IMG/VR virus record: IMGVR_UViG_2541047680_000004
Source: a virus
Taxonomy: Duplodnaviria; Heunggongvirae; Uroviricota; Caudoviricetes
Direction: 5' to 3' (one strand)
Length of the DNA stretch: 64,000 nt
Part shown: positions 2,832 through 63,357 of the stretch, piece after piece
Position numbering within the stretch: the first letter of the stretch is position 1
Layout: every line of letters begins with the position of its first letter
Notes under the pieces: generated by a model
What the model was told of the DNA's origin: nothing
What the model saw: the letters and a program-made list of their open reading frames with translations, nothing else
The model's database searches: none
Program-made: the position numbers and the translations under genes

Positions 2832-2835
2832 AATT

Positions 2836-2922: not shown

Positions 2923-2927
2923 TAAAT

Positions 2928-3002
2928 TGGCGATGGTGGGTGGATTCGAACCACCGACCAGTTGGTTAACAGCCAACTGCTCTACCGCTGAGCTACACCA
3001 TC
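2928..3002 (-). tRNA. tRNA-Asn (anticodon GUU)
   Basis: Perfect cloverleaf: acceptor GATGGTG/CACCATC, D-arm GCTCAGCGGTAGAGC, anticodon stem GTTGG/CCAAC with loop CTGTTAA, T-arm GGTGGTTCGAATCCACC, encoded CCA; differs from host tRNA-Asn. Confidence 0.85.
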
Positions 3003-11756: not shown

Positions 11757-11769
11757 AAACAAATTGTTT
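11757..11769. promoter_or_regulatory. palindromic operator-like site AAACA-N3-TGTTT
   Basis: aaacaaattgttt 20 bp upstream of the helicase start; same palindrome recurs at 10 sites. Confidence 0.5.
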
Positions 11770-14289: not shown

Positions 14290-14957
14290 TATTCTTCTTC
14301 CTCCAGACTCAACAGATAATCTACAAATTCTTCAAACTCGGCTTCCGCCTTTTTGTCGCGCTCGCTACCGGTCATTTCAAAGATAGAACGACCAGACTCT
14401 TCCGCATCATCATAGACGTTGCGGTTATATAGATTGACTGGCGCAGACTCGATGCCAAACGTCTCAACAATCTCTTTAGCCGCCAGAATGCGAGACACTT
14501 GTGATGGCAAAGCCGGGCACTGGTTCATGACCGCGCGGACCTTCACTTTATCGTTTACATTACGAACATTGTCGATAATAGGATCGATGTCACGCAGAGA
14601 TTTCAAATCACGACGCTTAGGACGAAGCGGGATAATGATAACGTCGGCCATCAGCATCGCTTGTCGCTGAATTTCGGAGTCAAAGCCACCAGCATCTACC
14701 ACTACATACTCAGCTCTACCCTGAAGCGATTTTAGGTGCTTAATGATGTCATCCTGAACGTATGCAAAAGGAATCAGCTCAAGGTCTTCGTTCTGTCGAC
14801 GGTCTTCACACCAGCTCGTTGTCGTGCGCTGAATATCTATATCGGTGATATAAACCTTCTTCTTCTTTTTGACTTTCAGGCAAACGGCAATTTGCTGGGC
14901 TACGGTGGATTTGCCTGGCCCGCCCTTTGTGCCGCCAACCACAAAGATCTTGGTCAT
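14289..14957 (-). CDS. parA: ParA-family partition ATPase (short, type Ib-like)
   Basis: Deviant Walker A GGTKGGPGKST, Walker B-like VVVDAGG; 222 aa. Confidence 0.75.
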   Translation of the reverse strand: MTKIFVVGGTKGGPGKSTVAQQIAVCLKVKKKKKVYITDIDIQRTTTSWCEDRRQNEDLELIPFAYVQDDIIKHLKSLQGRAEYVVVDAGGFDSEIQRQAMLMADVIIIPLRPKRRDLKSLRDIDPIIDNVRNVNDKVKVRAVMNQCPALPSQVSRILAAKEIVETFGIESAPVNLYNRNVYDDAEESGRSIFEMTGSERDKKAEAEFEEFVDYLLSLEEEE

Positions 14958-23567: not shown

Positions 23568-26500
23568 TTACAGAAGGCCAATTCTTACTCGTAGGACGTT
23601 GTTATCGTCATAAACGTCAATCCGCTGACCATTTATGACCAGTCGCCCATTACCCCCGCTATTACCGTTGATCTCAAGCGTTCCATTTTTGCCGAACCGC
23701 CATCCAGATCTACCGCTAACAAAATTGGTAGATTGCAGATCGCCTACTTTTGCATTGGTGATTGTGCCATCCTTGATATACGCACCATTCATATAGGCGA
23801 TACTGTTTTCGATAACAAATGGCGTGGTGATCTTCCCGTTAACAGAGTTGACCAAACCAAACCTGTCAGCCTGCACCAAAAACTGAGAAAGGCCAGTGGT
23901 GTCGATACCAAGCGCAATACCAGCAACATACTTCTGCCCTCCGCTCGTTGAAGTTTCCATTTTCAACGTCCACGCGGTTGACACTTTTTTGTTGGTATCA
24001 GCAATAGCTGTTGCCTGCTGTTGAATTGTCGCGGTATTTCCATCCACCTCTGCTTTCAGAGTATCGATTCGCCCACTCAGAGCATTATCTGCCTGCGTTC
24101 TCGCTGTCGTTTCAGTTGTTACCGCCGCGGAAATGTTGGCTGCCGTTTGAGACTCTAAGTTTGTGATTTGAGTCGCCAATGCAGCATCTTGCTCTGTACG
24201 CGTTTTCGTTTCGGTTGCTACAGCCGCTTTAATATCCTCTTTGTATTGAGAGGTCAGCTTGGTGATCTGAGACGACAACGCCGAGTCAGCATCAGTTCGA
24301 GCCTGCGTTTCAACTGCAACGGCCGCACTAATATCTTTCGCTGTCTGTGCTTTTAAACTTGAAACCTCTTTTGTTAAAGCGGTATCACCATCAGCACGAG
24401 CCGTTGTTTCTCTGGCAAGAGATGCCTCGAGATCATTAGCTTTTGCTGTAAGAGACGAAATCTGAGTGGACAATGCACTATCGGCATCAGTCCTTGCCTT
24501 TGTCTCTACAGCAACCGCTGCGGCAATATCAGTTCCGGTTTGTGCTCGCAGGCTGTTAATTTCTCGTGAGAGCGCCTGGTCAGCACTTGCTCTGGCCTCC
24601 TGCTCCTGAGTGATGGCAGCGGATATATCACCGTCAACCTTTGACTGAAGCTGGTTTATTAGTTTGGCTAACGCAGAGTCCCCGCTTGCTCGGGCCTCCT
24701 GCTCACTACGTATTGCAGCAGAAATATCATCATCAACCTTTGCCTGAAGTTGGGTGATCTGGCTTGCCAGAGCCGAATCTTCCGTTGCTCGGGCTTCTTG
24801 CTCTTCCTTAATAGCTGCGACGATATCGTTGCTTACTTTCGACTCAAGCTGAGTGATCTGTGTCGTCAGAGCTTCATCGGCAGATGTGCGAGCCTCCTGC
24901 TCTGTACTAATCGCCGCGCTGATATCTCCTTCAAACTTAGATTGCAGCTGAGTGACACGCTTTGCCAACGCTTCATCGCCATCGGCACGAGCGGTGGACT
25001 CTTCCAGAATACTGGCCTTAATGTCTTCGCCAATTTCTACGCGAATTTCCTCAACCTTCGTGGCCATTGCAGACATATCATCAGCAAAGGTTTTCTGTGT
25101 TGTTGCGATCTTCGCGTTATTGACCATCTGCTTGTGCTGGTCTTCATCTTGACGAAGAGCCAGGTCAATATTTGTTTTGGCTAACGCCTCAATGTTCGTA
25201 GTCAGTTCTGCACTGGCACGATCGACCTCTGCAACCGTCTTTTTCATTTCTTCAACGGCAGCGGAGCTTTCCTCTACCGTTGACTGCAACACTTCCAGTT
25301 GTTTAGCGTTTGCAGCATCGCCTTCAACACGAGCCTCGCTTTCCTTAGCAATAAGAGCCGCCGCTTCATCTCTTGCAGCCTTTATTGCCTCGACTGTATT
25401 AGCGAGAGCTTTATCGTGTTCAGATACGGTGTTTTCGATTTCAACAATTGCAGCATCAGTGGCATCAATTTTTTCAAACGCTTCATTGACCTTGTCGATC
25501 GTTGCCGAAACCTCACCTTTAAGCTCGGTTTGTGCGTTCTCCAAAGCATCGCTACGCTCGTTGAATTTTATTTCAAAACCCGCGAGGTTATCGCTGAACT
25601 GCTTATCTAATTCAGCTATATCTTCCTTAACGTCGTTTACCGACCCCTCCAAAGATTCGACGCTCTGGTTGATATGCTCATTTAACTCGTCAACTGCTTC
25701 TTGAGAGGCTTTGCTGTTGATGTCCTCAAGCAGAGCCTGACCAAGCTCGGAAGATGTAATTTTGCCAGCCAGGAACGACAGTACATCGCGAGTTGTCGCC
25801 TCTGTACCCAAGTTTGAGTTCGGAGGGCTTAACATACCTCGCTTGTTCGATGCTCGAACCCAGTAATACCACGTTTCGCTATCCCCAAGACCAGCATGTG
25901 TAAAGGTGGTGCTTGCAGACTCTGCGATCAGTTTCGCCGTATCCAGATTGTTGGTCTGGGATGCGTAAACATTAATGTGATCAAGGTCTACCGAATCTGG
26001 ATTAACCCAATTCAGTATCACATTACGATAGTCTCCAACGGCCGTTAATGACGTTGGGGCATCCGGCGGTGTCATTGTGCCCAACACCTGATAAACGGTA
26101 CTGATAATCTCTGTTTTTTTACCGTTGAATGAAACCGCATACAGTTGGAAGTCGTAGCGTCCATTCTCCGCGACATTAACGATTTCGTATTGCTCTTCGG
26201 TTACACGCGCCGATTGCCAGTTCGATACATTGTTTTCATCAGAACGTCGCCAACTGATCCAATACTCTGGAGATTTTCCTTCCCATGTTGCAGTCAGTTT
26301 TACTGACAGGTTGCCCGGGCTTGAGAGATAAGTCCCTTCAGTGATTTGCAGATTAGATGGCTTGGAGTAAGTTGGGTCCAATACCGTCGTATTCTGCGGG
26401 ATCAGCGTTGCACCATTGTCGATTGCCTCATATTTAGACGGATTGTTCTCAACAGCGGTGATGTCAAAGCTACCCGGCGTTTCCCCCTGCGCGATGTTAA

Positions 26501-43931: not shown

Positions 43932-45188
43932 CTATCGAGAACCACCAAGAATAACACGGTTTTTGACTGGATACCTACGATGTACTGGATAGCCCAATGC
44001 GTCTGCACTATGCTCAATGCCACCTGTCTTATCCATATCTCGTGTTCCAGGCTTGTAGATGACTTTTTCCAGTGAATCAATCAAATGCTTGCACTTCGGA
44101 TCGATATACAGCCGGATATCTCCAGATGCGGTCATCAGCATTCGGTTAACAGCATTAACACGATCCGCAATTGGCGGGTGCTTTTTCGAATAATCGACAC
44201 GTAAGAATCCCTTCTCTTTGAATATGTCGACGTCAGACTCCCCGCGAGCATGTTGGCGATAAGCACCTGCCGGATCTGGAAATATCGTTATCTGTGATTT
44301 CCAGCGCCAGAAGCGTCTCTCAAGCTCATCACAAACCTCTGCCGTGTTAGAGGAAAAGAGCACCAATTCATCAATTGCCCATAGCTCACCATTTGGCTGA
44401 GGTTGCAAAATTACGGAAGACATCGGGTCAATGTTGAAGTCCTGCCCTACCCATATAGGTAACCGAGGGTTGAACTGAAGCGGTTTTACATGCACGTTAC
44501 GATCGAACGGGTAGTAAACGCGCCCGGACATGTTCTCAAAGCTGGCCAGGTACTCCTGAGCGAACGATTTGGGGTCCATATCGTTCTTAGCAGCTTCAAT
44601 TTCCGCCGTAGGTACAAACGGAGAATCGGCAGTTACAAACTGCCAGCTCTTCCACTGTCCCTTTCTTTGCAGCTCTACGTTCTGGCCTATAGTCCACAGT
44701 TTGTGAAATTCCGAGAAGCCTTTTGGCGTACCAATGATCAGTGCACCGCCGCGTGTCGATGAAAGAGTAGGTCGTAACACCTTGTACCAAGTGTCAGCCT
44801 TCATATCCTGAAATTCATCAAGCACTACAAAATGCAACGCTACGCCGCGCAGAGTGTCAGGCTTATCAGCACCTTTGAGGGCGATCTCCGAACCGTTCTT
44901 CAACACGATTGTCATCGTGGTGTCGTTCTTTTTCCTAACCCACTTACGAGGCAGAACTTCCTGTAGATCGTCCCACAAAATCTGGCGAGCCATCTGGTAA
45001 GTAGGAGCGACATACCAGACCCTTTGCTTTTTTTCCTTTGCCGCCGCACGAATAATAGTGGAGATCGACAACCGGGATTTTCCCCAGCGTCGACCAGCAC
45101 AAACAACTTTAAATCGATGCGGAGACTGGAAGACTTTCATCTGTCCAGAATGCAGTTGCACAAGACTGAGCGAGGACGGGATTGCCAT
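43932..45188 (-). CDS. terminase large subunit
   Basis: N-terminal Walker A (CAGRRWGKSR), Walker B-like VVLDEF, C-terminal nuclease-type acidic residues. Confidence 0.8.
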   Translation of the reverse strand: MAIPSSLSLVQLHSGQMKVFQSPHRFKVVCAGRRWGKSRLSISTIIRAAAKEKKQRVWYVAPTYQMARQILWDDLQEVLPRKWVRKKNDTTMTIVLKNGSEIALKGADKPDTLRGVALHFVVLDEFQDMKADTWYKVLRPTLSSTRGGALIIGTPKGFSEFHKLWTIGQNVELQRKGQWKSWQFVTADSPFVPTAEIEAAKNDMDPKSFAQEYLASFENMSGRVYYPFDRNVHVKPLQFNPRLPIWVGQDFNIDPMSSVILQPQPNGELWAIDELVLFSSNTAEVCDELERRFWRWKSQITIFPDPAGAYRQHARGESDVDIFKEKGFLRVDYSKKHPPIADRVNAVNRMLMTASGDIRLYIDPKCKHLIDSLEKVIYKPGTRDMDKTGGIEHSADALGYPVHRRYPVKNRVILGGSR

Positions 45189-45820
45189 TATTCGTCCTCC
45201 CCTTCACTTCCATCATCTGTCGCATCAAATTCGCTTAGAGCTTCTTCTTCCAACGTCTCAAGCAATTCGTCATCGATGATTTCAGGCTCGTCGTCTTCCT
45301 GACGTAATTTCGCCACCTGGGAAGGCGTAAGCTCACCAAATACCAGATTCGGAATTTCTTCCTCGTCATTTTCCGCATGATCCATGCCCAATGCTTTGGA
45401 CGAAACTTCAAAGCATTTTGCAAGGGTATTACTGGCTCTCTGTAAGCTCTTGAGAGAATCCTCAATCGCCCCTAAAGGCTTACCCTCACGTTTGGCCGTA
45501 GTGACTTCGACCATCACCATCTGCCCCAACGCATACGCCCAGCCGTCATAACGTGTACGACGTTCTTCTATCTTTTCCGCACGGGCTTTAGCGCGAAGCT
45601 CTGCGTCAGATTTAAGAGACTCACGAACCATCTTCCCAACAGAGTCCGCGCCTTTCTCTAATCCTCGCTTTTTGAAATGTCTGGAGAGTGTTTCACGACG
45701 AATGCCGTACTCTTCCTCCAGCTTTGAGAGTGTATATTCGCCTGACGTCCATTTGGCTTCAGCTTCGGCCCACTCCGCTGGTGTCAGGCGAGTTTTTACC
45801 TCGTCTTTTTCGACCGTCAT
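45188..45820 (-). CDS. terminase small subunit
   Basis: 210 aa with N-terminal HTH-like segment (TLSKLEEEYGIRRETLSRHF) and acidic C-terminus; stop overlaps TerL start. Confidence 0.6.
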   Translation of the reverse strand: MTVEKDEVKTRLTPAEWAEAEAKWTSGEYTLSKLEEEYGIRRETLSRHFKKRGLEKGADSVGKMVRESLKSDAELRAKARAEKIEERRTRYDGWAYALGQMVMVEVTTAKREGKPLGAIEDSLKSLQRASNTLAKCFEVSSKALGMDHAENDEEEIPNLVFGELTPSQVAKLRQEDDEPEIIDDELLETLEEEALSEFDATDDGSEGEDE

Positions 45821-46291: not shown

Positions 46292-47182
46292 TTATGCCGG
46301 TAAAGCAATTTCTAACGGTTTATCCAAAGGTTGTTTGTCGAATGCCAGCAGTGGCAGCGTGTCAGGCAGTCGACGGCCAAAGTCAGGGTTTCGGTACACA
46401 CCATACAACGGAGACGTAAAGCTCAGGTTGTGAATGTCCTTGAGCAGCTTCACAATGCTGGCCTCGTCCACCAGACTGTCGGCAATGTCCTGAATCGTCG
46501 TGCCACGATTCCGCCCAGCTTTTGCCAGGGAACTGTTCTTGTGGTAGTCCGCCACCAGATCACGCAGTGCACGGCGACGACGAGACTCGCTCATTGCGAA
46601 CAATTCTTTGACGATCGCCTCGTTATCACCCGGGTCGGAACGGAAATGGCGCTGGAATACACGCAGTGCACTTTCATAGCTCTTCGGTCGCTCAGGGCGG
46701 ATGAACTTAAACCCTGCTTTCATGGCGAAGGGATTGTATTTGCTCATCGAGGACTGGATCTCAATGATTGGCCGGTCATGCATCCTGCTAACCAGGTTAA
46801 TCATTCGATAAGAGACGCCTACGCCACGATACTGAGTATCCACAACTGAGCGACTGATCACCGCAAAGTTGTTATTCACGTACCGACCCCAGTACTGGTT
46901 AGCCACGGTGGTATTAGTGGTTGGTTTCAACTTAGGAAACATGCGGTGGCGAGGTGCCAGCAGTAGTTTCGGGTAAGCCATAACCACGACGCCCACCAGA
47001 CGGTCATCAAGTTCGCAGCGATAGTAAGTTGGCGCGAAAGGTTTGCCGTCTGTTTTGTAGTGAAGCGACTTAAGAGCGTGCCAGTCCTCTACAGTTCCCT
47101 TTGTGACAGTCATTCGCTCCAGAAAGTCCAGATGACGCGGAAACTCTTCAGGGCGGTAGCGTTTAATGATGATGTCCGTCAT
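46292..47182 (-). CDS. GNAT-fold acetyltransferase-like protein
   Basis: CoA-binding-type motif VVDTQYRGVGVSYRMINLV (R-G-x-G-x-S) in a 296-aa protein. Confidence 0.4.
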   Translation of the reverse strand: MTDIIIKRYRPEEFPRHLDFLERMTVTKGTVEDWHALKSLHYKTDGKPFAPTYYRCELDDRLVGVVVMAYPKLLLAPRHRMFPKLKPTTNTTVANQYWGRYVNNNFAVISRSVVDTQYRGVGVSYRMINLVSRMHDRPIIEIQSSMSKYNPFAMKAGFKFIRPERPKSYESALRVFQRHFRSDPGDNEAIVKELFAMSESRRRRALRDLVADYHKNSSLAKAGRNRGTTIQDIADSLVDEASIVKLLKDIHNLSFTSPLYGVYRNPDFGRRLPDTLPLLAFDKQPLDKPLEIALPA

Positions 47183-47844
47183 AAATGAACCTCATCATGA
47201 CTACCATTGTGATATTCCACCTTCACGCGTTCTTTGTAGTGCTTGGTGATCTGCATATCCGGGCGCAGCGCGTTCTTCAGGTCTTCGTGAGTCGTCGCCA
47301 CCATTACCGTCGCACCAACCTTTCGAGCGGCACGCTGGAGGTTAGATGCCACAACCTGAGCGGTTACACGGTCTAGAACAGCACCGAACTCGTCAGCAGC
47401 CCACACTTTAGCGCCTGACTCAATCAGTTTGGCAATCTTGAGACGATATTTCTGACCGTCTGACATTTCAGAAGGCTTGCGAACAAACAGATATGCATCG
47501 TTCAGACCAGCCATAGATAACAACCCAAGCGCATCGCTGGTCGTTTTGCCCAACTGATCGATGACGTTAACCTCATTATCGAAGGTAAAATCATCGATGG
47601 AGGCTACAGACAGCCCTTCATCCTTCATCTGTCGTTGCAACTCGCGCAGCACAACGGATTTGCCGGAACCGGATTGGCCGGTGATGTACACCACATCGCC
47701 CTGCTTCACTTCCAGCTCCAGATTGTCGTAAAGCGTCCACTCTTTTTCGTCCAGGCCAAGCCCGAACGACTCAGCGATTTCCAACGTGCGCGTGGTTTTA
47801 TTTACGCGTGTCTGAAACGATACGTTGATGATGTATTTGCTCAT
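47179..47844 (-). CDS. stand-alone ABC-type ATPase (nucleotide-binding domain only)
   Basis: Walker A GQSGSGKS, signature-like MSDGQKYR, Walker B VWAADEF, H-loop TTHED. Confidence 0.65.
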   Translation of the reverse strand: MSKYIINVSFQTRVNKTTRTLEIAESFGLGLDEKEWTLYDNLELEVKQGDVVYITGQSGSGKSVVLRELQRQMKDEGLSVASIDDFTFDNEVNVIDQLGKTTSDALGLLSMAGLNDAYLFVRKPSEMSDGQKYRLKIAKLIESGAKVWAADEFGAVLDRVTAQVVASNLQRAARKVGATVMVATTHEDLKNALRPDMQITKHYKERVKVEYHNGSHDEVHL

Positions 47845-48542
47845 ACAGCCATCTCCCCGGAAGAGATCTTCTCCGCATATGCCACAAATGCGTCTACCCC
47901 GCTTTCTCCCGTCATTTCTTCCATGTGGGCAAGCAAATCACCAACAACAATGGCAGAGCCAGCAGGAAGCGTTTTAAAGCCCAATACGTCGACAACACGT
48001 ACTTCTTCCGCTGCAACTTCACGACTGATCTCGGTGTGTTCATCCTTCTGTCGTTTAGTTTCTTCGCCAAGATCGATAACTAGCGAGTCGGTGTCCATTT
48101 CTTCTGTCATGCTGCCAACGAGAACATTCAACTCACGCTCTTCAAAGCCGAAAACCTCGATATCGTCCAGAACAAGCGACTCAAGCTCTTTCTGTAGCTT
48201 AATTGCATCGTAATCAATGCTGGCAAGTCGGTTATCTTCAAGGCGCTTCGCACGAACCTCGTCATCACTGAGATCATCGCGAACAATAACCGGTACGCGC
48301 TCAAGTCCAGCAAAAATTGCAGCCTCACGGCGGCCGTGGCCAGTAATAATTACGTCGTTCTTATCGACCGTAATTGGCTGGTCAAATCCGCGCTTTTTAA
48401 TGGCTGCGGCTAGATCTCGGATCTGCTGTTCATCATGCTTTTTGGCATTCATCTCATAGGGAATAAGATCTGCCGGGTCGCGATATACGATTTCAAACTT
48501 TTTGGTCATTACATACGCTCCTTGTAGTAGTCGACCAGCCAC
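47841..48542 (-). CDS. ParB N-terminal domain (ParB/Srx-like) protein
   Basis: ITGHGRREAA motif resembling the ParB GxxRxxA box. Confidence 0.6.
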   Translation of the reverse strand: MAGRLLQGAYVMTKKFEIVYRDPADLIPYEMNAKKHDEQQIRDLAAAIKKRGFDQPITVDKNDVIITGHGRREAAIFAGLERVPVIVRDDLSDDEVRAKRLEDNRLASIDYDAIKLQKELESLVLDDIEVFGFEERELNVLVGSMTEEMDTDSLVIDLGEETKRQKDEHTEISREVAAEEVRVVDVLGFKTLPAGSAIVVGDLLAHMEEMTGESGVDAFVAYAEKISSGEMAV

Positions 48543-49207
48543 ACCAGAGCCTCACCAGCGTTCTCCATTTCATTACCGGTGTTAATAGCCTGCTCTTTGA
48601 TGATGTTTTTTATGGTTTCTGCAACACGATCTGACGCATCGAAAGTTACTTTGAAGCGCATGGTCTGATGTTCCGCCCCCACACGTTCGGTTTTCTCTCG
48701 TTTGTCGGTATCGACAGGCTCATCACTACCACGAGACAACGCCTCCAGTGCTTCAAGGTCGATTGCCGCCTCTTTTGCTAAAACCATCGAGATTTCGTCG
48801 TCATACGGGGCGATTTCAGACAGTTGATAGTCAAGTTCTGACTGAATTTCTTCAATGAAGCGTTGCAATGCGATTTGGTCGTCTTCACCGTATCGCTCGT
48901 TGTCCACCAGTGACATCTGTTTAGCTACGACATCGCTAATTTTGCCCACAGAAAGCACTGGAACCGTTGAAATTCCTTGCTCAATAGCGGCACGCCAGCG
49001 ATGTTCGCCGCCGAGGATTTCAAAAAATCCATCTTCAAGTTCACGAGCCAAAATTGGCTTAAAAAAGCCCAATTTTTCGATAGAACCTTTCAGTTTTTCA
49101 AAATTCTGCGCACCAACCGAATTGGTGTTCCAGGTATTCGGGCGAAGGTTGGCAACATCAACCTGCAAAATCGTGATTTTTACATCCATTTTATTGCTAC
49201 AATCCAC
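48509..49207 (-). CDS. ParB N-terminal domain (ParB/Srx-like) protein
   Basis: ILGGEHRWRAA motif resembling the ParB GxxRxxA box. Confidence 0.6.
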   Translation of the reverse strand: MDCSNKMDVKITILQVDVANLRPNTWNTNSVGAQNFEKLKGSIEKLGFFKPILARELEDGFFEILGGEHRWRAAIEQGISTVPVLSVGKISDVVAKQMSLVDNERYGEDDQIALQRFIEEIQSELDYQLSEIAPYDDEISMVLAKEAAIDLEALEALSRGSDEPVDTDKREKTERVGAEHQTMRFKVTFDASDRVAETIKNIIKEQAINTGNEMENAGEALVWLVDYYKERM

Positions 49208-51607: not shown

Positions 51608-52132
51608 ATGACAACCAAAGATATTACCTACGGTATCCAAGCTGAACTCTGGCCGCGAGATTACACTAACGTTGAAAAACTACTGATGTTCTGGCGCAGA
51701 GAACAAATTCCTGTAAGGGTCACTCTCGAAGATGGCCAGGCGTTTTGCATGTACGTTTATGGCCTCATGCCATCTCGTAACAAAGTTGACCTTTGCCCAG
51801 CCCCTTTTGACAAAGAAAATCGTATAAGGCTCCCACTTGAACGCATTAGTACAATTGAATCAGGTGTGGTTGACAGTATCGCTCACGATTTCAAAGGTCG
51901 ACTAACAGTTCACCCTGATTATGTCGATAATCGGCCATCACGCCGCGATTTTTTTGCAATTTGCAACCAAGCCTACAAAGCAAACAAATCTATAAGGGTG
52001 TACATGGCGGATGGCCGTGAAATTGAGGGGGTGTCAGCAGGCGCAGATGCTTGTCAGGTTACACTACGTGTCGAGAACGGTAGAAAAATAGTTGTTTTGT
52101 TCGATTGGGTTGAACGAATTTTGCCTTTTTGA
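51608..52132 (+). CDS. hypothetical protein
   Basis: 175-aa ORF (internal Met with reasonable spacing after lipoprotein stop). Confidence 0.45.
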   Translation: MTTKDITYGIQAELWPRDYTNVEKLLMFWRREQIPVRVTLEDGQAFCMYVYGLMPSRNKVDLCPAPFDKENRIRLPLERISTIESGVVDSIAHDFKGRLTVHPDYVDNRPSRRDFFAICNQAYKANKSIRVYMADGREIEGVSAGADACQVTLRVENGRKIVVLFDWVERILPF

Positions 52133-52726: not shown

Positions 52727-53377
52727 ATGGCTAACATTATCATTTCTAAAAAGTCCATCATTGAAGCTGCATCTATTGTATCCGACGAGCTGCGCGAAAA
52801 AGCAGATCTGGCAACTCAAACATATAACGAACATTATAAAAATGGTACGCACACTAAAGCAGACAAAGCAAATATGCAAGCTGCGACCACTAAACTTGCT
52901 TACTTCATCAACAACGTCGTAAACGCAGTAGAAGACGAAAAATTATGCTCTGTTTTCTACTATGCGATTAAAGCAAGCAAACAAGCGCCAGAAGTATTTT
53001 TCCGTGATGCAATGACTAATAGTTATTCTCTGGAAAAACTGGTTTATCTGGTTAAATCAATTAAATCTGGTAAATGCGTTTATTCCGTCGCTGATATGTC
53101 TGGATCTCGTGTATTCGCTTTAATCGATATGATTAACGACGAGATCGACACGTTCACTAATGGCGCTGTTTTCGATTTAATGAATGAAGCTAAAAAAGCG
53201 TGTGAAATTAAATTGGACGCTGGCTATACTCAAGCCAACCAGTTGATCAATCTTTGCGAACGTCTTGGACTTGTTGAAAAAGTCAAAGGAGCTGGGAGTG
53301 CGAAAGCTGGTACTCAGCAATATCGCTTTATTAAAAATGATTTCTACAATTATTTAGCTGATGCTTTCAAAGCGTAA
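52727..53377 (+). CDS. hypothetical protein (AT-rich cassette gene 1)
   Basis: 216-aa ORF with AT-rich codon usage, strong RBS-like aaggaaaaa upstream. Confidence 0.5.
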   Translation: MANIIISKKSIIEAASIVSDELREKADLATQTYNEHYKNGTHTKADKANMQAATTKLAYFINNVVNAVEDEKLCSVFYYAIKASKQAPEVFFRDAMTNSYSLEKLVYLVKSIKSGKCVYSVADMSGSRVFALIDMINDEIDTFTNGAVFDLMNEAKKACEIKLDAGYTQANQLINLCERLGLVEKVKGAGSAKAGTQQYRFIKNDFYNYLADAFKA

Positions 53378-53883: not shown

Positions 53884-53908
53884 GAGCGCCCACTATGGGC
53901 GCTTTTTT
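53884..53908 (+). terminator. rho-independent terminator
   Basis: gagcgcccactatgggcgc hairpin + TTTTTT; same hairpin without T-tract at 53,389-53,410. Confidence 0.6.
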
Positions 53909-53930
53909 CGTTTCCAATACTCCCACCAAA

Positions 53931-53956
53931 ACGCGCCAATGATGGCGCGTTTTTTA
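53931..53956 (+). terminator. rho-independent terminator (second in tandem)
   Basis: acgcgccaatgatggcgcgt hairpin + TTTTTT. Confidence 0.55.
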
Positions 53957-54370
53957 TTGTCTTTAACTCACTCCAACAACATAAAAATAAGCGCCAAAAT
54001 AACGCCATAGACGCGCTTTTATATCCTTACCAGTACATACCCATTACTTAACACATTAACGCGCTTAAAACGCGTTATATTGCGCTATAGAGTATGGTTA
54101 ATCATTGGCTTTTAGTCTTGCTTTATGATCCGCGTTTATTTGTCGGCGCGGATCGGCATTTTGTTTTGTTCCGTATCCGCTCGCGTATTATGTGCGCGTG
54201 ATTTTTCACATAATCACACCACTTAATCACGTATGTGATTATGCTACGAAAGAAATCTGGATGTCTCAGGCGACGAAAGTCATCATAATTTTCCCCGCTC
54301 ACCTGTCCGACAACCGCTGGTTGGATTCCACCAGCTTCCCGATGTTTTTTCTACACAAAGGCGAATGCAG

Positions 54371-54450
54371 CCGTTTCCCGAAAAAATCCTGGCCGTTCCC
54401 CGTCGGCTCATGAATACGTTCCTCGCCGTTTCTGAAAATTTCCCTGCGGC
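54371..54450. repeat. iteron cluster A (3-4 direct repeats, consensus CCGTTTCCCGAAA)
   Basis: ccgtttcccgaaaa / ccgttccccgtcgg / ccgtttctgaaaat / ttccctgcgg spaced about 22-33 bp. Confidence 0.6.
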
Positions 54451-54495
54451 AGCTGGTGGCTATAGAGAAAGGGCCGTTTCTGGCCCTCTTCTCAG

Positions 54496-54978
54496 TTACA
54501 CGCCATCAAGGATGTGGATGCGGTTGCTTGCGTATACATTCAGCATAAAGTTAGCGCAAAACAGTTTCCATGTATCAACGCCAGCGGTATACGTAATGTT
54601 TTTGCATTTAATCGCATTGTTGGCGATCCGCATCCCCTGCGATACTGCTTCATCGTCGGAAAATTTGAACGACGATTGAGTTTTAATCCAGACAGAAATC
54701 TGCGTAGCAAACTCAATCAGCTTAGACTGGCAGAATCGCCCGGAGCGTACCGGGAAGACGAACGTTCCGAATCCAGAATTAACCACATATGCTTTCTCAA
54801 ATACCCTCGAGTAACGACGATTGCCAATGATGTCGCGTGCAATAATGCATTTTTCTTGTGCTGACAGTTCTACCGTCTCATTGTCGCGCCATGCACCAAG
54901 TACTCGTTTTTCAATGTCAGAGAACGTTACAGCGATATTGCCATGTGCGGGTGCGTTTACAGTAGCGATAAAATTCAT
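54496..54978 (-). CDS. hypothetical protein (small-gene cassette 1)
   Basis: 160-aa ORF; operator palindrome at 54,999-55,011 upstream. Confidence 0.45.
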   Translation of the reverse strand: MNFIATVNAPAHGNIAVTFSDIEKRVLGAWRDNETVELSAQEKCIIARDIIGNRRYSRVFEKAYVVNSGFGTFVFPVRSGRFCQSKLIEFATQISVWIKTQSSFKFSDDEAVSQGMRIANNAIKCKNITYTAGVDTWKLFCANFMLNVYASNRIHILDGV

Positions 54979-55328
54979 GATTAATTCCTTATCGTAAATA
55001 ACAAATTGTTTTCTTGTTGGTGTTAATTATCGTTGTACGAATAAGGCGTCAAAGTGGAAAGTTGCGGTAGCCGGACGGGAACAGGTGGGTTTGTCGGTTG
55101 CCTGGAGGTAAGAGGTTGGTGTTTTTAGCCTGCGGGAAACAGGATGGTCATTTAAGGCCACCAATGCTGATGGCCTTAATAATTATCGACCGATTACGCT
55201 AAGGATCTTTTCCTCAACTGATTTGTTGTTGCGACTAAACTGCCTTGCGTATCTGATGACAGAAGAGGCGTTTTGCTTTCTGACCATCTCGGCTCTTTCC
55301 TTCAGGCGTTTCTTGAAATCGCCCATAT

Positions 55329-55703
55329 TTACCACCAGGCGCAGAAGGTCAGTCTGTTATTGTGAAAGTCGTGGTTCCTGATCAGGTCTTCCACAAGTTT
55401 TTTCAGCTTATCCACGTCATGCCAGTAACCTTCGTCGTACTCCTGACTGCCGAAGAAAAAACCTTCCCGAGTAGGCAAGTACTCTTCGCAATTGCTTTCG
55501 TTTATGTGCATCAAATGAGCTTTCAGAAGACAAATGTCATTCATCGTTAATTCTAAAAGCTCACAATTTTCGACTTCACCTACGTTGCGCTCCATCCACC
55601 CAACGAGCGCATTGAACTTACGGAAGTAAGCAACCTGCTTTCTGGATGCCTCGTTATTCAGATCGTTTTTAGGCTGTGTCTCGATATAGATATCAAGTCC
55701 CAT
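55329..55703 (-). CDS. hypothetical protein (small-gene cassette 2)
   Basis: ORF with AAGGAA RBS before ATG at 55,703; operator-like palindrome at 55,763-55,775. Confidence 0.4.
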   Translation of the reverse strand: MGLDIYIETQPKNDLNNEASRKQVAYFRKFNALVGWMERNVGEVENCELLELTMNDICLLKAHLMHINESNCEEYLPTREGFFFGSQEYDEGYWHDVDKLKKLVEDLIRNHDFHNNRLTFCAWW

Positions 55704-55820
55704 GATGGTTTCCTTATTAAGTTGCTTCAGTGAAATCATTTTCACAAATCAGATAAGGCAGAAAACAAATTGTTATCGGGCATAATAAAATGGCGCGGTT
55801 TACGCGCCATTTAAAGAGGA

Positions 55821-56216
55821 TTAAGCGAATACGCTTTCAGGGATTAAGGTGTCGGCAGGAATGCCAGAGGTAATGCGCAGACCGTACTGGCCAATCCAGG
55901 TGGTGCTGGTGTTCAGGCTGGAGGCGAATACGGTGTTAACCATATTCATCATGGTTTCAAACACCTCTTCATCAACCTGGCGGAAGTAGTTCTCGATTTT
56001 CAGCAGCAGCGGGTCAGTTGCATCGAGAATGGACTGGTATTGAGTCGCGTACTCGCCGTCGGAGGCATCACCTTTACGCACGATCGTACTGGCCTGTACT
56101 TCGGCACCAGTTTCGGTGTTGTACGTAACAACGGTGATTTTTGCCACATTCTTACCTTCGGCGGTTTCAGAGGCATAGTAAACATCAACTGTCAGTTTTT
56201 CGCGTTTAACGGTCAT
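55821..56216 (-). CDS. hypothetical protein (small-gene cassette 3)
   Basis: ORF with GGAGAG RBS before ATG at 56,216. Confidence 0.45.
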   Translation of the reverse strand: MTVKREKLTVDVYYASETAEGKNVAKITVVTYNTETGAEVQASTIVRKGDASDGEYATQYQSILDATDPLLLKIENYFRQVDEEVFETMMNMVNTVFASSLNTSTTWIGQYGLRITSGIPADTLIPESVFA

Positions 56217-56342
56217 TTCACTCTCCGTAGTGTATTGGTTATTTTTATATTCTATGATCGTAAGTATGTACTTACAATACAAAAAAGCCCCGTAAGGATG
56301 GCGGGGCTGTCGTACTGTCGACTAATTACCACTTGCACATTA

Positions 56343-56654
56343 TCAGGCTATTGCCATCACTGATGCTCTCTGAATTTCTTGCTGGGCCACGCGGTTAACT
56401 TCCATCAAGGCCAGTTCGAGCTGATGTTCCGGCCACATTCTTTGAAACGCCATCCAGCCTTTTCCACGCTGGCGACGAACATTCATTACATAACGAGTAA
56501 AGGTGTTTTTATCGAAAGACACCGCTGTTTCACGGAACAGACGAATAGAGGTTCCATTGGCAACGATGTCCAGCAAAGTTAATTGAGCAACCAGCGCAGG
56601 CTTCTCTTTTCTCTTCTGGTCTTTGTCCAGACCAAGAACCAATGATTTTTTCAT
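56343..56654 (-). CDS. hypothetical protein, possible DNA-binding regulator (small-gene cassette 4)
   Basis: ATG at 56,654 lies 12 bp downstream of palindrome 56,666-56,678; terminator hairpin after stop. Confidence 0.45.
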   Translation of the reverse strand: MKKSLVLGLDKDQKRKEKPALVAQLTLLDIVANGTSIRLFRETAVSFDKNTFTRYVMNVRRQRGKGWMAFQRMWPEHQLELALMEVNRVAQQEIQRASVMAIA

Positions 56655-56665
56655 CACAACTCCGT

Positions 56666-56678
56666 AAACAACTTGTTT
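56666..56678. promoter_or_regulatory. palindromic operator-like site AAACA-N3-TGTTT
   Basis: aaacaacttgttt immediately upstream of gene start 56,654. Confidence 0.5.
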
Positions 56679-56808
56679 TCTCAATGGCGTAAATAATACC
56701 AGTAAGAAAACGGCTACAAAGCATAATGATCAGGTGTATGAGCGATATGCAGGTTCTTCCCTGCGGCTACAGATGAAGTTAAGCCAGCATTGCTGGCTTT
56801 GGTTGGGT

Positions 56809-57138
56809 TTACTCGAATACTTCAAGAAACTCCTGAACGTCCCAATGCTGGACGAGGTGAAGATAGACCTTAGAAATCACGTCATTTTCGCTATCGCATG
56901 TGAAGTAGTACTTCTGGCTGCGGTTGTATGTGTCCACACAAAATTCGCTCATATCCATAAAGTCAGCATCTTCACCCATGTCGCAAATCATCAAAGCAGG
57001 TGCATCATCACGAGTCATCAGCTCCAGCACCCATCTTGAATTAATCAGAGTGGAAGACCAACCTTCCAGCTCATAGAACTGGTCAAACTCTTTTTGAGTT
57101 AATTTCTTGATTTGGTTGATGTCGATATTTGCAAACAT
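56809..57138 (-). CDS. small acidic protein (small-gene cassette 5)
   Basis: 109 aa with about 22 Asp/Glu; ATG at 57,138 is 13 bp downstream of palindrome 57,151-57,163. Confidence 0.45.
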   Translation of the reverse strand: MFANIDINQIKKLTQKEFDQFYELEGWSSTLINSRWVLELMTRDDAPALMICDMGEDADFMDMSEFCVDTYNRSQKYYFTCDSENDVISKVYLHLVQHWDVQEFLEVFE

Positions 57139-57150
57139 AAAGCAATCCTT

Positions 57151-57163
57151 AAACAACATGTTT
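57151..57163. promoter_or_regulatory. palindromic operator-like site AAACA-N3-TGTTT
   Basis: aaacaacatgttt. Confidence 0.5.
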
Positions 57164-57499
57164 TCTTGATGGTGTTATTATCGCAATAACGCACAGGCGA
57201 AAAAGGATTTTATTCCGGTGAATATGGTTTTGGCAGTGAGTTTTCAGGTTCAGTACCGAGTATACTTTTTACATTATTCTGATTTAGTGGCCGAAGGTGG
57301 CTGGTGGGCAGAATAATCCTCTCCCCGAAAACCTACTGAAATCGATTGTGACCCGTTGGCTGTCTGGCACAATTACGCTGTAGCTGGGCATTCAGAGGGA
57401 ATCCAGCGGTAAGCAAGTCCGCCTACGTGAGCGCCTCTCTTCTTCCCGCACATTACAGGTGGGTAGCCGCAACTCTCCCTCTCGCTATACCGGTACGCC

Positions 57500-57635
57500 G
57501 CCGTTCCTGAACCGGCATCGAGCCTTTTCCCGAAATCCACACAGGCAACTCGACCGTTTCCCTGAAAACCTCCAGCCGTTCCCCGAAGGCAACCCAGCCT
57601 TTTCTGTAGCGGGATGCAACCTTTTCCCTGTATGG
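57500..57635. repeat. iteron cluster B (6 direct repeats, about 22-bp period, consensus CCGTTTCCCGAAA)
   Basis: gccgttcctgaacc, gccttttcccgaaa, accgtttccctgaaaa, gccgttccccgaagg, gccttttctgtagc, accttttccctgta at about 57,501, 57,524, 57,555, 57,576, 57,598, 57,621. Confidence 0.65.
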
Positions 57636-57749
57636 ACCGAAGGCTGACCGTAGGGGTTTTACGGGGGATAAAATCAGGAGTTGAATAAATACGAAAAAGG
57701 AGGCGACACCCCTCCTTCCCTCCCCACTTATACATACCTGGCTTCTTCG

Positions 57750-58600
57750 CTATACATGTTGTGTTTTCTTCGTGTTTTATCTGTCTCAACCTCTCTATAG
57801 GCGTTAATGCTCACTCCTTCCAGAACCTTCTATACGGCGACTATTTCTGTTGGTGAATTGGGTGTGTTGTTCTCTCTGTCGGTGTATGTGGTTTCGTTCG
57901 TTTTGCGGTGGTTCTTCTATGGGGTGTTCTCGTCGTTTTGGTGATTGTTCTTCTCCGTGTATGGAGTAATGGCAGGTGGGCGATTCCTTTCGTTATTGTG
58001 TTTGAGTTGTTTGTCTGGAGTGTGTGAAAGGCTTTTGTAGTTATTCGTGTATTGGGTAATGGCGTTTCCCGTGATTGTTATGTTTCGTGTCTTTTGGGAT
58101 TGAGAGAAACCTTGCGGTTACAGGCTTCGTTGGGGTTTCAGTGATTCTGGTGTTTCTTCGCTGTTTGGGTAATGGCGTGTCGTGGGTATCGCGCGTATGA
58201 ATGTTTTCGGATTGCCTGTGAAAGTTAGGTTGGTTGTCCGGTAGCCTGGGGAGAAGAGGTGGGTCTTTTCGGTAGCCTGCCATAAAGAGGTTGGTTGTTT
58301 TGGGTAATGGTATATGTGTTATTTAGTTGTTTTGTTATGCCTGAAAATAAGTTGTTTATATGGTTGTGTAACGCAACGGGAGCGATTTTGAGCGTGTGTT
58401 TTTGTTGGTAGTGTGTTGAGTCGTCTGTGGTGAAAATTGGACGCTGTGGCGCTATCTGCTGCGTAGAATTACGGGTATAAGAAGTGATGTGTGATAACGT
58501 CAATTTTTTAGACCAAATCGGGAGAAAGCGTTGATGTTTCGTTGATCTGTTATTTAGTTGTTTTCTTATTGGTATAAACAACCATAACCTATTGATATTT
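57750..58600. repeat. GT-skewed non-coding tract with short dispersed repeats
   Basis: Plus strand almost devoid of C-runs, rich in G/T; repeated tgggtaatgg (x4), gttatttagttgtttt (x2), ggtagcctg...agaggttgg (also at 55,060-55,130). Confidence 0.55.
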
Positions 58601-60065: not shown

Positions 60066-62099
60066 TTACTTAACCTGGTGGCCAGGTTTAGCACCAGCAT
60101 CCGGGCTTAACAGGAAGATATCTTTCCCGCCGGGGCCAGCAGCCATCACCATGCCTTCAGAGATACCGAAGCGCATTTTACGCGGAGCCAGGTTAGCCAC
60201 CATAATTGTGTGACGACCAATCAGTGCCTGTGGGTCTGGATAAGCAGAACGGATGCCTGAGAAGACATTACGCTTTTCACCACCGAGATCCAGCGTCAGG
60301 CGCAGCAGCTTGTCAGAACCTTCAACAAACTCTGCGTTTTCAATCAGCGCCACGCGCAGGTCAACTTTAGCGAAGTCGTCAAAGGTGATGGTTTCCTGAA
60401 TCGGGTCGTCTGCCAGTGGGCCAGTTACCGGTGCGGCTGTGGCTTTCACTTCTTCTTTGGATGCTTCCACCAGTGCTTCCACCTGTTTCATATCGATACG
60501 GTTATACAATGCCTTGAACGGATTCACTTTATGGCCCAGCAGCGGTTGCTGGATACCATCCCAGGTCAGTTCTGTATTCAGGAATGCTTCTGCACGTTCA
60601 GTCAGTTTCGGCAGTACCGGTTTCAAGTAAGTCATCAGCACGCGGAACAGGTTAATGCCCATAGAGCAAATCGCCTGCAGATCGGCATCGCGTCCTTCCT
60701 GCTTCGCCACCACCCACGGAGCCTGTTCATCAACATAGCGGTTAGCCAGGTCAGCCAGTGCCATGATTTCACGGATAGCTTTACCAAATTCGCGGCTTTC
60801 CCATGCTTCGCCAATCACTTCAGCGGCATCAGTAAAGGTTTTGTACAGTTGCGGGTCAGCCAGTTCGCTTGCCAGCACGCCGTCAAAACGCTTGTTGATA
60901 AAGCCTGCATTACGGGAGGCCAGGTTAACCACTTTGTTCACGATATCGGCATTCACGCGCTGAACGAAATCCTCCAGGTTGAGATCGATATCATCAATGC
61001 GCGAAGAGAGTTTCGCAGTGTAGTAGTAACGCAGGCTGTCGGCGTCAAAATGATTCAGCCAGGTGCTGGCTTTAATAAAGGTACCGCGAGACTTAGACAT
61101 CTTCGCGCCGTTCACCGTCACATAGCCATGAACAAACAGGTTGGTCGGCTTGCGGAAGTTGCTGCCTTCCAGCATTGCTGGCCAGAACAGACTGTGGAAG
61201 TAAACAATATCTTTACCGATGAAGTGGTACAGCTCGGCGGTGGAGTCTTTCTTCCAGTATTCATCGAAGCTTACGCTGTCGCCGCGCTTGTCGCACAGAT
61301 TCTTGAAAGAACCCATATAGCCAATCGGCGCATCTAGCCAGACGTAGAAATATTTACCCGGCGCGTTCGGAATTTCAAAACCGAAATACGGCGCGTCGCG
61401 GGAGATATCCCACTGTTGCAGGCCAGATTCAAACCACTCCTGCATTTTATTTGCCACCTGCTCCTGCAACGCACCGCTGCGGGTCCATGCCTGCAACATT
61501 TCGCTGAAAGAGGGCAGATCAAAGAAGAAGTGTTCAGAATCACGCATTACCGGCGTAGCGCCAGAAACCACCGATTTCGGCTCGATCAATTCAGTCGGGC
61601 TGTAGGTCGCGCCGCAGACTTCGCAGTTATCGCCGTATTGATCCGGGGATTTACATTTCGGGCAGGTGCCTTTCACAAAACGATCCGGCAGGAACATGCC
61701 TTTTTCCGGGTCGTACAACTGAGAGATAGTGCGATTTTTAATAAAACCGTTCTCTTTCAGGCGAGTATAGATAAGCTCAGACAACTGACGGTTCTCTTCG
61801 CTGTGCGTCGAGTGATAGTTGTCATAGCTGATGTTAAAGCCTGCGAAATCAGTCTGGTGTTCCTGACTCATTTCGCCAATCATCTGCTCCGGTGTGATAC
61901 CAAGTTGCTGTGCTTTCAGCATGATCGGCGTACCGTGGGCATCGTCGGCACAGATGAAATTAACCTCGTGGCCGCGCATTCGCTGGTAACGAACCCAGAC
62001 ATCAGCCTGGATGTGCTCCAGCATATGGCCGAGGTGGATTGAGCCGTTAGCGTACGGCAGCGCGCACGTCACCAGAATTTTCTTCGCGACTTGGGTCAT
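60066..62099 (-). CDS. metG: methionyl-tRNA synthetase
   Basis: 677-aa product beginning [26 protein letters not shown] (HIGH motif) with KMSKS motif, matching enterobacterial MetG as recalled from memory; track ORF 60066..62228 has a spurious N-terminal extension. Confidence 0.95.
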
Positions 62100-62256
62100 A
62101 GTAGGCATTACTTCTTTGTAGTGAAAAGGGGCTTGATAGTAACAAAATGGCCTTATGTCTGCCATGTGATAACAGCATTTCTCATAAATGATTAAATGTC
62201 GCAGCTGGAGTACACTACAAGGCGACAATTGCGCAAATTAAAATAAAGGAGACGGG

Positions 62257-63357
62257 ATGAGCGAGTCCAAATCGCCGGATGCCCTGAGAGCAATGGTAGC
62301 CGGTACGCTGGCTAATTTTCAGCACCCAACCCTGAAACACAACCTGACTACGCTTAAAGCGTTACACCATGTTGCGTTGATGGATGACACACTGCATGTC
62401 GAACTAATCATGCCTTTCGTGTGGAATAAGCCTTTTGAAGACCTGAAAGAGCAATGTAGTGGTGATCTGCTCCGTATCACTGGCGCAAAGGCTATTGACT
62501 GGAAGCTGTCGTACAACATTGCCACGCTTAAGCGCGTCAAAAACCAACCAGGCATTAATGGTGTTAAGAATATTATCGCCGTAAGCTCAGGCAAGGGCGG
62601 TGTAGGCAAATCGTCCACAGCAGTAAACTTGGCACTGGCTTTGGCTGCTGAAGGTGCGAAAGTTGGTATTTTGGATGCCGATATCTATGGTCCATCAATT
62701 CCAACCATGCTGGGCGCGGAAAACCAACGTCCAACCTCACCGGACGGTACTCACATGGCACCTATCATGTCTCATGGCCTGGCAACCAACTCTATTGGTT
62801 ATCTGGTCACCGACGACAATGCAATGGTGTGGCGTGGACCGATGGCCAGCAAGGCGCTGATGCAGATGTTGCAGGAAACACTGTGGCCTGATCTGGACTA
62901 TCTCGTTCTCGATATGCCGCCGGGCACTGGTGATATTCAATTGACGCTGGCGCAGAACATTCCTGTAACTGGTGCGGTTGTGGTAACTACGCCGCAAGAC
63001 ATCGCGCTGATCGATGCGAAGAAAGGCATTGTGATGTTCGAAAAAGTCGAAGTGCCGGTACTAGGTATCGTCGAAAACATGAGTGTGCATATTTGCAGTA
63101 ACTGCGGTCATCACGAGCCAATTTTTGGCACCGGTGGCGCACAGAAACTGGCCGAGAAATACAACACGCAGTTGTTAGGCCAAATGCCACTTCATATCTC
63201 TCTTCGTGAAGATCTGGATAACGGAACACCAACCGTTATTAGTCGTCCAGATAGCGAATTTACGGCTATTTATCGTGACCTCGCAGATCGCGTTGCTGCC
63301 CAAATGTATTGGCAAGGTGAAGTAATACCTGGCGAAATCGCATTCCGCGCAGTGTGA
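62257..63357 (+). CDS. apbC: Fe-S cluster carrier ATPase Mrp/ApbC
   Basis: Product ...SPDALRAMVAGTLANFQHPTLKHNLTTLKALHHV... with P-loop SGKGGVGKSS and CxxC (CSNCGHH); divergent from metG as in E. coli. Confidence 0.9.
   Translation: MSESKSPDALRAMVAGTLANFQHPTLKHNLTTLKALHHVALMDDTLHVELIMPFVWNKPFEDLKEQCSGDLLRITGAKAIDWKLSYNIATLKRVKNQPGINGVKNIIAVSSGKGGVGKSSTAVNLALALAAEGAKVGILDADIYGPSIPTMLGAENQRPTSPDGTHMAPIMSHGLATNSIGYLVTDDNAMVWRGPMASKALMQMLQETLWPDLDYLVLDMPPGTGDIQLTLAQNIPVTGAVVVTTPQDIALIDAKKGIVMFEKVEVPVLGIVENMSVHICSNCGHHEPIFGTGGAQKLAEKYNTQLLGQMPLHISLREDLDNGTPTVISRPDSEFTAIYRDLADRVAAQMYWQGEVIPGEIAFRAV

Follow-up and report, generated by a model that had tools for sequence, protein, structure and literature searches.

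Two phased direct-repeat arrays around a variable gene island in SSU5/pHCM2-type phage-plasmids, with a candidate winged-helix binding protein

A 64,000-nucleotide (nt) stretch of DNA from the Caudoviricetes record IMGVR_UViG_2541047680_000004 (hereafter referred to as the window) contains two clusters of short direct repeats, array A (54371–54434) and array B (57501–57628), on either side of an island of five small orphan genes on the minus strand (54496–57138). The 4.6-kilobase (kb) stretch around the arrays shares 98.7% identity with plasmid pECOH89 (NC_023916.1) and 97% with the phage-plasmid Cyrano/pLF82, and the Salmonella phage SSU5, Klebsiella pKPHS1-type plasmids and Yersinia pestis pMT1 are weak but clear relatives of the window. 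As judged from its sequence, the window is part of an SSU5/pHCM2-type phage-plasmid. Position 54000 of the window corresponds to position 73636 of pECOH89, and the window spans approximately 19.6–83.6 kb of the 112-kb element; the replication gene therefore lies outside it. A preliminary description of the window had taken the repeats for iterons, with a plasmid-type replication or copy-control locus as its preferred reading. Its observation was right and its assignment of machinery was wrong. Here we report that the arrays form a genuine cis element of great age, as yet unexplained, for which a protein encoded beside array A is a plausible partner.

Sequence and layout of the two arrays

Array A comprises three cores, CCGTTTCCC at 54371, CCGTTCCCC at 54393 and CCGTTTCTG at 54426, together with a degenerate copy, ACGTTCCTC, at 54415. 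Array B comprises six cores, at 57501, 57523, 57554, 57576, 57598 and 57620. All of them lie on the plus strand. Successive cores are spaced by 22 and 33 base pairs (bp) in array A and by 22, 31, 22, 22 and 22 bp in array B, and the two arrays are 3.1 kb apart. The cores are asymmetric and intergenic, and share the consensus (G)CC[G/T]TT[T/C]CC, with about 9 bp conserved per unit.

The pattern used to scan for cores, CC[G/T]TT[T/C]C[C/T], matches the window 17 times against 14.5 expected by chance, yet the matches are concentrated: the densest 150 bp holds six same-strand cores, against at most three in 300 dinucleotide-preserving shuffles. The stricter pattern CCKTTYCCYG matches five times against 0.77 expected, and four of these matches fall inside the two arrays. 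The repeats are genuine, phased, binding-site-like arrays of one orientation, as the preliminary description held, with clustering beyond that of shuffled sequence. The core scan revealed no other cluster, either elsewhere in the window or in the remainder of pECOH89. Scanning genome-wide for three copies of CCGTTTCCC returned many unrelated tandem repeats and was uninformative, and the repeats are not described in the searchable literature. An unrelated 50-kb viral contig (IMGVR_UViG_3300046714_000194) carries five or six copies of ACCGTTTCCC, including an inverted pair, at its positions 1540–1670, which could be a coincidence or a second user of the same motif.

Array A is embedded in a non-coding block (54337–54489) without any annotated feature, which is 74–79% identical in Salmonella, Klebsiella, Enterobacter, Citrobacter, Cronobacter and Yersinia and also contains a Chi octamer and an intrinsic-terminator-like hairpin. 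The hairpin (54471–54488, minus strand), which ends the gene at 54496–54978, reads AGGGCC-N6-GGCCCT followed by TTTCTCT on the minus strand, and its loop carries an extra core at 54474 (CCGTTTCTG on the plus strand, CCGTTTCT in the loop). A second terminator-like hairpin, at 57694–57720, occupies the corresponding place at array B, upstream of the array in the minus sense. Every gene from 62228 down to 54496 is on the minus strand, and a plus-strand block (a DEAD/UvsW-like helicase, an FljA-like protein and a 216-amino-acid (aa) protein, among others) meets these genes head-on at array A. With such a hairpin just ahead of it in the minus sense, each array is shielded from the prevailing transcription. 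A row of four plus-strand terminator-like hairpins (53884–54198) separates the end of the plus-strand block from array A; this row varies among genera, whereas the array A block does not.

Chi octamers (GCTGGTGG) are found by both arrays in the Escherichia coli lineage, at 54452–54459 and 57300–57307, with another on the opposite strand at 54328–54335, and the one at array A is retained in E. coli, Salmonella and Klebsiella. We rejected them as a significant feature of the arrays, given that Chi density is ordinary (22 in 112 kb) and that the sites do not occur in all lineages.

Conservation of the arrays and a candidate binding protein

The non-coding regions holding arrays A and B occur in approximately 770–840 plasmids in PLSDB, with nothing annotated beneath them. 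Position, strand and core of both arrays are maintained in Escherichia, Salmonella (including SSU5 itself), Klebsiella and Enterobacter, and the position and spacing of array A are kept in five genera. Place, strand and spacing are likewise retained in the aligned relatives, namely a divergent E. coli plasmid, a Salmonella pHCM2-like plasmid, SSU5 and Klebsiella. Plasmid pMT1 of Y. pestis has array A only; it is without array B and the tract to its right, and the distal part of the island is lost.

Among 74 distinct units from 12 relatives, the information is confined to about 9 bp, (G)CC[G/T]TT[T/C]C[C/T](C), and the rest of the unit is nearly free. In an alignment of array B from 22 sequences, core columns are 0.86 identical compared with 0.73 for the spacers (p = 4e-6). 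Natural variants of array B have three to six copies, always in register, which is the expected outcome of unequal exchange between repeated sites. In the distant relatives L109, L232 and L234, the core is intact and the spacings (for example 34, 28, 24–26 and 10–12 bp) are roughly whole helical turns. A conserved core, free spacers and helical-turn spacing together are the signature of repeated protein sites on one face of the DNA. As judged from their sequence, the arrays are thus very probably protein-binding arrays.

Two deep relatives (L235 and L236), in which the homologue of the 216-aa protein is only 33% identical, indicate how old this arrangement is. Both retain the synteny of two ParB_N genes and an ABC ATPase gene, the DEAD helicase gene and, further on, the gene for this homologue. 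In L236 (55% GC), at least nine CCGTTTCC/CCCTTTCC cores lie directly downstream of the latter gene, and a second array of about ten cores, 4.6 kb away from the first, is followed by a CCCTCC..CTTACA block, a G+T-rich tract and four repeats of a second family described below. The 11 small minus-strand genes between the L236 arrays include none related to the island genes of the window. The AT-rich L235 has GGGAAAACGTTCCCTTTCC twice and GGCGTTTTGAA twice, a drifted form of the motif, and is the sole relative with a diverged motif. Given that L236 has the same layout around unrelated island genes, the architecture belongs to the backbone, is far older than the genes that it brackets and travels with the gene for the 216-aa protein.

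This gene (52727–53377, plus strand) encodes our candidate array binder. An AlphaFold2 model of the protein (predicted local distance difference test (pLDDT) score of 84) has a long helical N-terminal part and a C-terminal winged helix, that is, a helix-turn-helix with a β-wing. The protein has no Pfam match and no helicase or primase domain, and its family is an orphan one, with only 23 clusters among 1.84 billion representatives in an exhaustive profile search. Searches of PDB sequences with the 216-aa profile, the 119-aa partner of the element's ParA, a 249-aa protein and the 103-aa island protein gave no matches. Across genera, the winged-helix protein is 83–87% identical, compared with about 70% for the neighbouring 160-aa protein.

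The winged-helix gene adjoins array A in every lineage, with the array about 500–1,000 bp downstream of the gene. This adjacency survives inversion of the gene: in a Serratia-like relative (L233, 7001–7648), the winged-helix gene alone is flipped relative to its block and still abuts array A. It also survives massive gene loss, in pMT1 and in a 52-kb deletion plasmid. In PLSDB, the winged-helix gene is present in 810 records (62 from Yersinia) and array A in 766 (55 from Yersinia), so that the two are distributed alike. In RNA sequencing (RNA-seq) of the LF82 Cyrano lysogen grown in lysogeny broth (LB), the winged-helix gene, CYRAN_113, is at the detection floor, and open reading frame (ORF) calls over array B and the G+T-rich tract are near the floor (PMC9928086, S1 table). 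The preliminary description had left the binder unnamed; conservation and adjacency make the winged-helix protein a specific candidate, an assignment that we consider about evenly balanced.

Two other genes were considered and rejected. The 160-aa gene beside array A has a good AlphaFold2 model (pLDDT 85) with no DNA-binding-like fold and no PDB match, and it is missing from a deep relative that has both arrays. The 'repressor-like' gene SSU5_116 is lineage specific and does not occur in the window.

Gene island and flanking non-coding features

The five island genes, all on the minus strand, encode proteins of 160 aa (54496–54978), 136 aa (55329–55739), 131 aa (55821–56216), 103 aa (56343–56654) and 109 aa (56809–57138). 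RefSeq has the same five, in agreement with the preliminary description. Gene content of the island varies between 4 and 11 genes among relatives. In the LF82 lysogen, expression of the island genes is low to moderate in LB and increases in macrophages (PMC9928086, S1 table). An IS100 element in plasmid CP057419.1 lies about 90 bp left of array B.

Four of the five island genes are preceded by a −10-like element and then a AAGAAAACAAnTTGTT motif, which is also present at the promoters of the helicase, parA and TerS-like genes and at others in the element. A related observation concerns the palindromic motif (A/T/C)AGAAAACAAnTTGTT(T), which contains AACAAnTTGTT and occurs on the minus strand of the window at 11758, 14994, 45862, 45887, 55000, 55764, 56667, 57152, 58552, 59919 and 59965, with further sites in pECOH89. 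At most sites, a −10-like TAAT(T/A)A or GATAAT precedes the motif by about 8 nt, and a Shine–Dalgarno (SD) sequence and ATG follow it after 10–25 nt. The motif accompanies at least 15 genes across the element, including those for the helicase, parA, the TerS-like protein, the island proteins and nrd. This palindrome may be a global operator or leader, to which the 119-aa ParA partner or the prophage repressor might bind.

The second repeat family, AGCC[T/G]G-N6-A[A/C]AGG[T/A][G/T]GG, occurs in the window at 55069, 55127, 58243 and 58274 only (four hits against 0.075 in shuffles), and the preliminary description was correct that it exists. The left set (55069–55147, plus strand) has two to three units of the AGCCGG/AGCCTG-N6-ACAGGTGGG type and lies just upstream of the promoter of gene 54496–54978; the right set (58243–58294, plus strand) has two units, 31 bp apart. 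The family is kept at both places in most lineages, and was noted for E. coli, Salmonella/SSU5, Klebsiella, Enterobacter and Yersinia. Short motifs recur in both regions; a local alignment of the two found only such motifs in common, and there is therefore no larger duplicated segment.

Immediately to the right of array B is a near-invariant block (57655–57735; TTACGGGGGAT..CTTGAAT..ACG..GCGA..CCCCTCC..CTTATA), which includes the minus-strand hairpin at 57694–57720. Its mean column identity of 0.88 is above that of the iterons, and it is recognisable in the most divergent relatives. The block is followed by a non-coding tract of 0.85 kb (57740–58600) with 70% G+T on the plus, iteron-bearing strand, a GC skew of about +0.4 and an AT skew of about −0.4. 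The tract holds TGTWTKGGGTAATGG four times (57958, 58048, 58161 and 58296) in addition to the right set of the second repeat family. It is 66–80% conserved across genera, and a G-rich strand skew over 0.6–0.85 kb to the right of array B is present in every lineage, including the 33%-identity relative. Open frames are common between 57.2 and 58.7 kb from base composition, and none of them is conserved. On both strands of the tract, folding energy is like that of shuffled sequence, and there is no Rfam match. The second repeat family and the G+T-rich tract are real and unexplained.

At the right end of the tract, the minus strand carries a promoter/leader motif like those of the island genes (58552–58600), with no SD sequence or ORF behind it. 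Transcription from this motif could give an untranslated RNA of about 870 nt, C/A-rich and G-poor, that stops at the hairpin at 57694–57720; such an RNA would be an ideal Rho substrate. Further right, the E. coli lineage of the element has host-like metG (methionyl-tRNA synthetase) and apbC/mrp genes (60066–63357), and Klebsiella and other relatives have type I restriction–modification or DUF262 genes at the same place, which is therefore a hot spot for accessory genes.

To the left of the arrays, the gene at 51608–52129 (plus strand) matches PF03614 (FljA, repressor of phase-1 flagellin; E = 1.5e-84) and has a weak Hfq-like signal. Its product is a homologue of an RNA-binding translational repressor and is kept in most of the phage-plasmid lineages examined. 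The ParB_N operon (47179–49207, minus strand), which encodes a tandem pair of ParB_N-domain proteins together with a small ABC-type ATPase and two unknown proteins, is divergent from the helicase/winged-helix block and adjoins the TerS-like gene; its synteny is kept to the deepest relatives. Elsewhere in the window are four clustered tRNA genes (Ser-TGA, Thr-TGT, Tyr-GTA and Asn-GTT; 2349–3002, minus strand) and a 99-bp tandem repeat of 2.2 copies with a 77% match (24586–24803, identified with Tandem Repeats Finder).

Proposed function and alternative explanations

In the explanation that we favour, with a probability of about 0.4, the arrays are the cognate sites of one backbone protein, likeliest the 216-aa winged-helix protein, which would loop or insulate the island after induction. 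Each 9-bp core would be one recognition unit, and spacings of about two or three helical turns would place the sites on one face of the DNA, allowing the arrays to be filled cooperatively. The long N-terminal helical domain might then join proteins bound to the two arrays, so that the island of about 3.1 kb, whose small genes have separate promoters, is looped out. From the silence of the winged-helix gene in the uninduced lysogen, we infer that the element would come into play once the phage-plasmid is induced or infects a cell; should the winged-helix protein be the binder, no array would be occupied in the resting lysogen. At the transition between lysogeny and lysis, the element would switch the island and its flanks or insulate them, rather than maintain the plasmid. 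The 'novel regulatory array' offered as a fallback in the preliminary description is still a live reading.

The lambda operators OL and OR offer a parallel: at least three phased sites per cluster, about two helical turns apart, form clusters 2–3 kb apart around a small block of genes, and looping by CI resembles the proposed bridging by an oligomerising DNA-binding protein. However, the operators of lambda are palindromic, lie over promoters and bind the lysogenic repressor, whereas the array cores are asymmetric direct repeats away from recognisable promoters, and the candidate binder is silent in the lysogen.

Several observations weigh against this explanation. No promoter overlapping either array is recognisable, and the distance to the nearest island promoters is about 330 bp for array B and about 600 bp for array A. 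In one Serratia-like relative, array B is down to two copies, with the neighbouring block conserved. Co-variation of the recognition helix and the core is not demonstrable across the relatives, because the core barely changes, and the adjacency of gene and array could be mere linkage. Other DNA-binding candidates exist, namely the 119-aa ParA partner, the two ParB_N proteins, the TerS-like protein and host factors. We infer the identity of the binder, the looping and its timing alike, and looping purely so; as the purpose of the arrays, looping or insulation is doubtful.

The main rival is a replication element for the lytic cycle, in which the arrays would be the origin or enhancer sites of an origin-binding protein, in a bipartite arrangement like P4 ori/crr or SPP1 oriL/oriR. 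We regard it as unlikely but well worth weighing. In P4 and SPP1, the same short iteron occurs in two clusters kilobases apart with genes between them, and the phased direct repeats described here are arranged similarly. The terminator-like hairpins that shield the arrays from transcription, the silence of the candidate binder in the lysogen, and its location in the same plus-strand block as the DEAD/UvsW-like helicase are all in keeping with such an element, and the phage-plasmid brings a full replication set of its own, with helicase, primase, Pol III alpha, ligase and RNase HI. However, the P4 iterons are bound by the alpha primase-helicase and those of SPP1 by G38P, whereas the winged-helix protein lacks any helicase or primase domain. 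There is no DnaA box within one mismatch beside either array, and GATC is under-represented in the array region. No AT-rich unwinding element was found beside the arrays; the sequence next to array B is 62% AT, and that in L236 is GC rich. The two-copy array B of the Serratia-like lineage also speaks against this rival. The lambda origin differs as well: its O-some forms on inverted-repeat iterons within the initiator gene next to an AT-rich region, unlike the asymmetric, intergenic cores with no AT-rich flank.

A sharper form of the replication reading takes account of the G-rich non-template skew to the right of array B, which is conserved in every lineage. Array B would place an activator upstream of a rightward transcript into the G-rich tract, where a persistent R-loop would be converted into a primer by the element's RNase HI, as at ColE1 or T4 oriF/oriG. 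In this scheme, SSU5-type phage-plasmids would have a second, lytic-phase replication element of undescribed design: the orphan winged-helix protein would fill the phased CCGTTTCC arrays and promote transcription into the G-skewed tract of 0.6–0.85 kb, a stable R-loop would be turned into a primer by the element's RNase HI, the UvsW-like helicase of the winged-helix block would be the off switch, and the second array would be a cis enhancer, with the plastic island riding between the two. We consider this design quite improbable; no convincing plus-strand sigma-70 promoter is found in the invariant block.

A partition centromere, with the arrays as sites of the winged-helix protein (TubR/AspA-like) or of the 119-aa partner of a type Ib ParA in prophage segregation, has a similarly small chance of being correct. 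Two direct-repeat clusters are typical of parC, parH and tubC centromeres, and the arrays share with tubC/TubR, pNOB8 AspA, parH/ParG and R1 parC/ParR the location by a gene for a small DNA-binding protein and, in the candidate, the winged-helix fold; array A lies directly downstream of this gene, as sopC and parS do of theirs. The ParA system (13933–14957, minus strand) pairs a 222-aa type Ib ParA (14292–14957) with the 119-aa partner, whose sequence reads like a ribbon-helix-helix protein with no Pfam or PDB match, and this pair has no repeat array of its own nearby, the only repeat there being the global palindrome in the parA promoter. Unlike in the known centromere systems, however, no ParA, ParM or TubZ motor gene was identified in the winged-helix block, where the DEAD-box helicase is the only enzyme, and the winged-helix gene is off in LB-grown lysogens, in which a partition protein must act. 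The ParA gene is 38 kb away, and none of the Yersinia pMT1 records has it, even though array A and the winged-helix gene are still present there. A centromere role for the ParA system is therefore weak, and parA does not lend the support to a plasmid-type locus that the preliminary description drew from it. The loss of array B from pMT1 also argues against a centromere.

The preliminary description had also mentioned a packaging (pac) array, in which the repeats would bind TerS and mark the start of headful packaging. Phased short repeats in two groups are known at the pac sites of SPP1 and P1, a lytic-phase function fits the silent lysogen, and array B is dispensable in pMT1, a non-phage plasmid. 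However, pac sites are usually in or beside terS, whereas the arrays are 8.5–12 kb from the genes for the TerS-like protein (45188–45820) and TerL (43932–45188), their groups are 3.1 kb rather than about 200 bp apart, and pMT1 keeps array A despite having lost array B and the distal island. Together, these observations make a pac site very unlikely.

An element acting at the RNA level, either a protein sponge of minus-strand GGA/GGGAAA motifs or a C-rich Rho-loading site on the plus strand, is more improbable again. The minus strand does repeat (C)AGGGAAA/GGGGAAC motifs, C exceeds G on the plus strand across array B, and the FljA/Hfq-like RNA-binding protein is encoded 2 kb away. By contrast, RNAalifold found no conserved structure over the arrays on either strand in 22 relatives (−7.8 and −15.4 kcal/mol over 266 columns), single-sequence folding z-scores were unremarkable (−1.6 to +0.6), and Rfam gave no match at the locus at either gathering or permissive thresholds. 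The position of the arrays downstream of the minus-strand terminator-like hairpins and the near-floor read counts over array B in the lysogen also disagree with an RNA function, and a strict 9-bp core with helical phasing fits recognition of DNA better.

The element has a plasmid origin elsewhere. In pECOH89, at least 15 copies of an iteron, GTATGCTGTCAGCGGT, are distributed over the two sides of a RepB-family initiator gene (101–1315, outside the window), a layout like that of incC/incA in P1; this iteron is unrelated to the array cores, and a search of the window that allowed three mismatches did not find it. In the Klebsiella IncpKPHS1 relatives, the RepA iterons are reported to lie 48–218 bp downstream of repA (PMC6735626). 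The cumulative GC skew is monotonic, turns only at repA and is otherwise uninformative, and no Rep domain was found in the ORFs flanking the arrays. The absence of a Rep gene near the arrays was correctly noted in the preliminary description, although the element does have an initiator, outside the window. The arrays are almost certainly not the RepA origin. Plasmid-type origin or incompatibility iterons for a Rep initiator are thus largely refuted: with their direct orientation, their two clusters and a period of about 22 bp, the arrays are reminiscent of incC/incA in P1 oriR and of other Rep-iteron replicons (F ori2, RK2 oriV and R6K), in which tandem direct repeats of 17–22 bp are in helical phase, but they lack a Rep gene, DnaA boxes and an AT-rich region, and pMT1 replicates without array B.

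The arrays therefore lack defining features of a Rep origin, a lambda origin, a centromere, a pac site and promoter-overlapping operators. The two arrays, the orphan winged-helix protein, the invariant block and the strand-asymmetric tract make up an ancient, backbone-linked module, which frames the most plastic gene island of the element. Phage-plasmids of the SSU5/pHCM2/pMT1/pKPHS1 type are very common in clinical Escherichia, Klebsiella, Enterobacter, Salmonella Typhi and Y. pestis; they spread extended-spectrum β-lactamase and other resistance genes, and the locus is present in roughly 800 PLSDB records. If the arrays are simple operators, the gain in understanding would be modest, and interest would be higher if the replication reading is true. 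Collectively, the module offers a handle on the switch or origin of this family, on the build-up of accessory genes at this place and on the design of curing or incompatibility tools.

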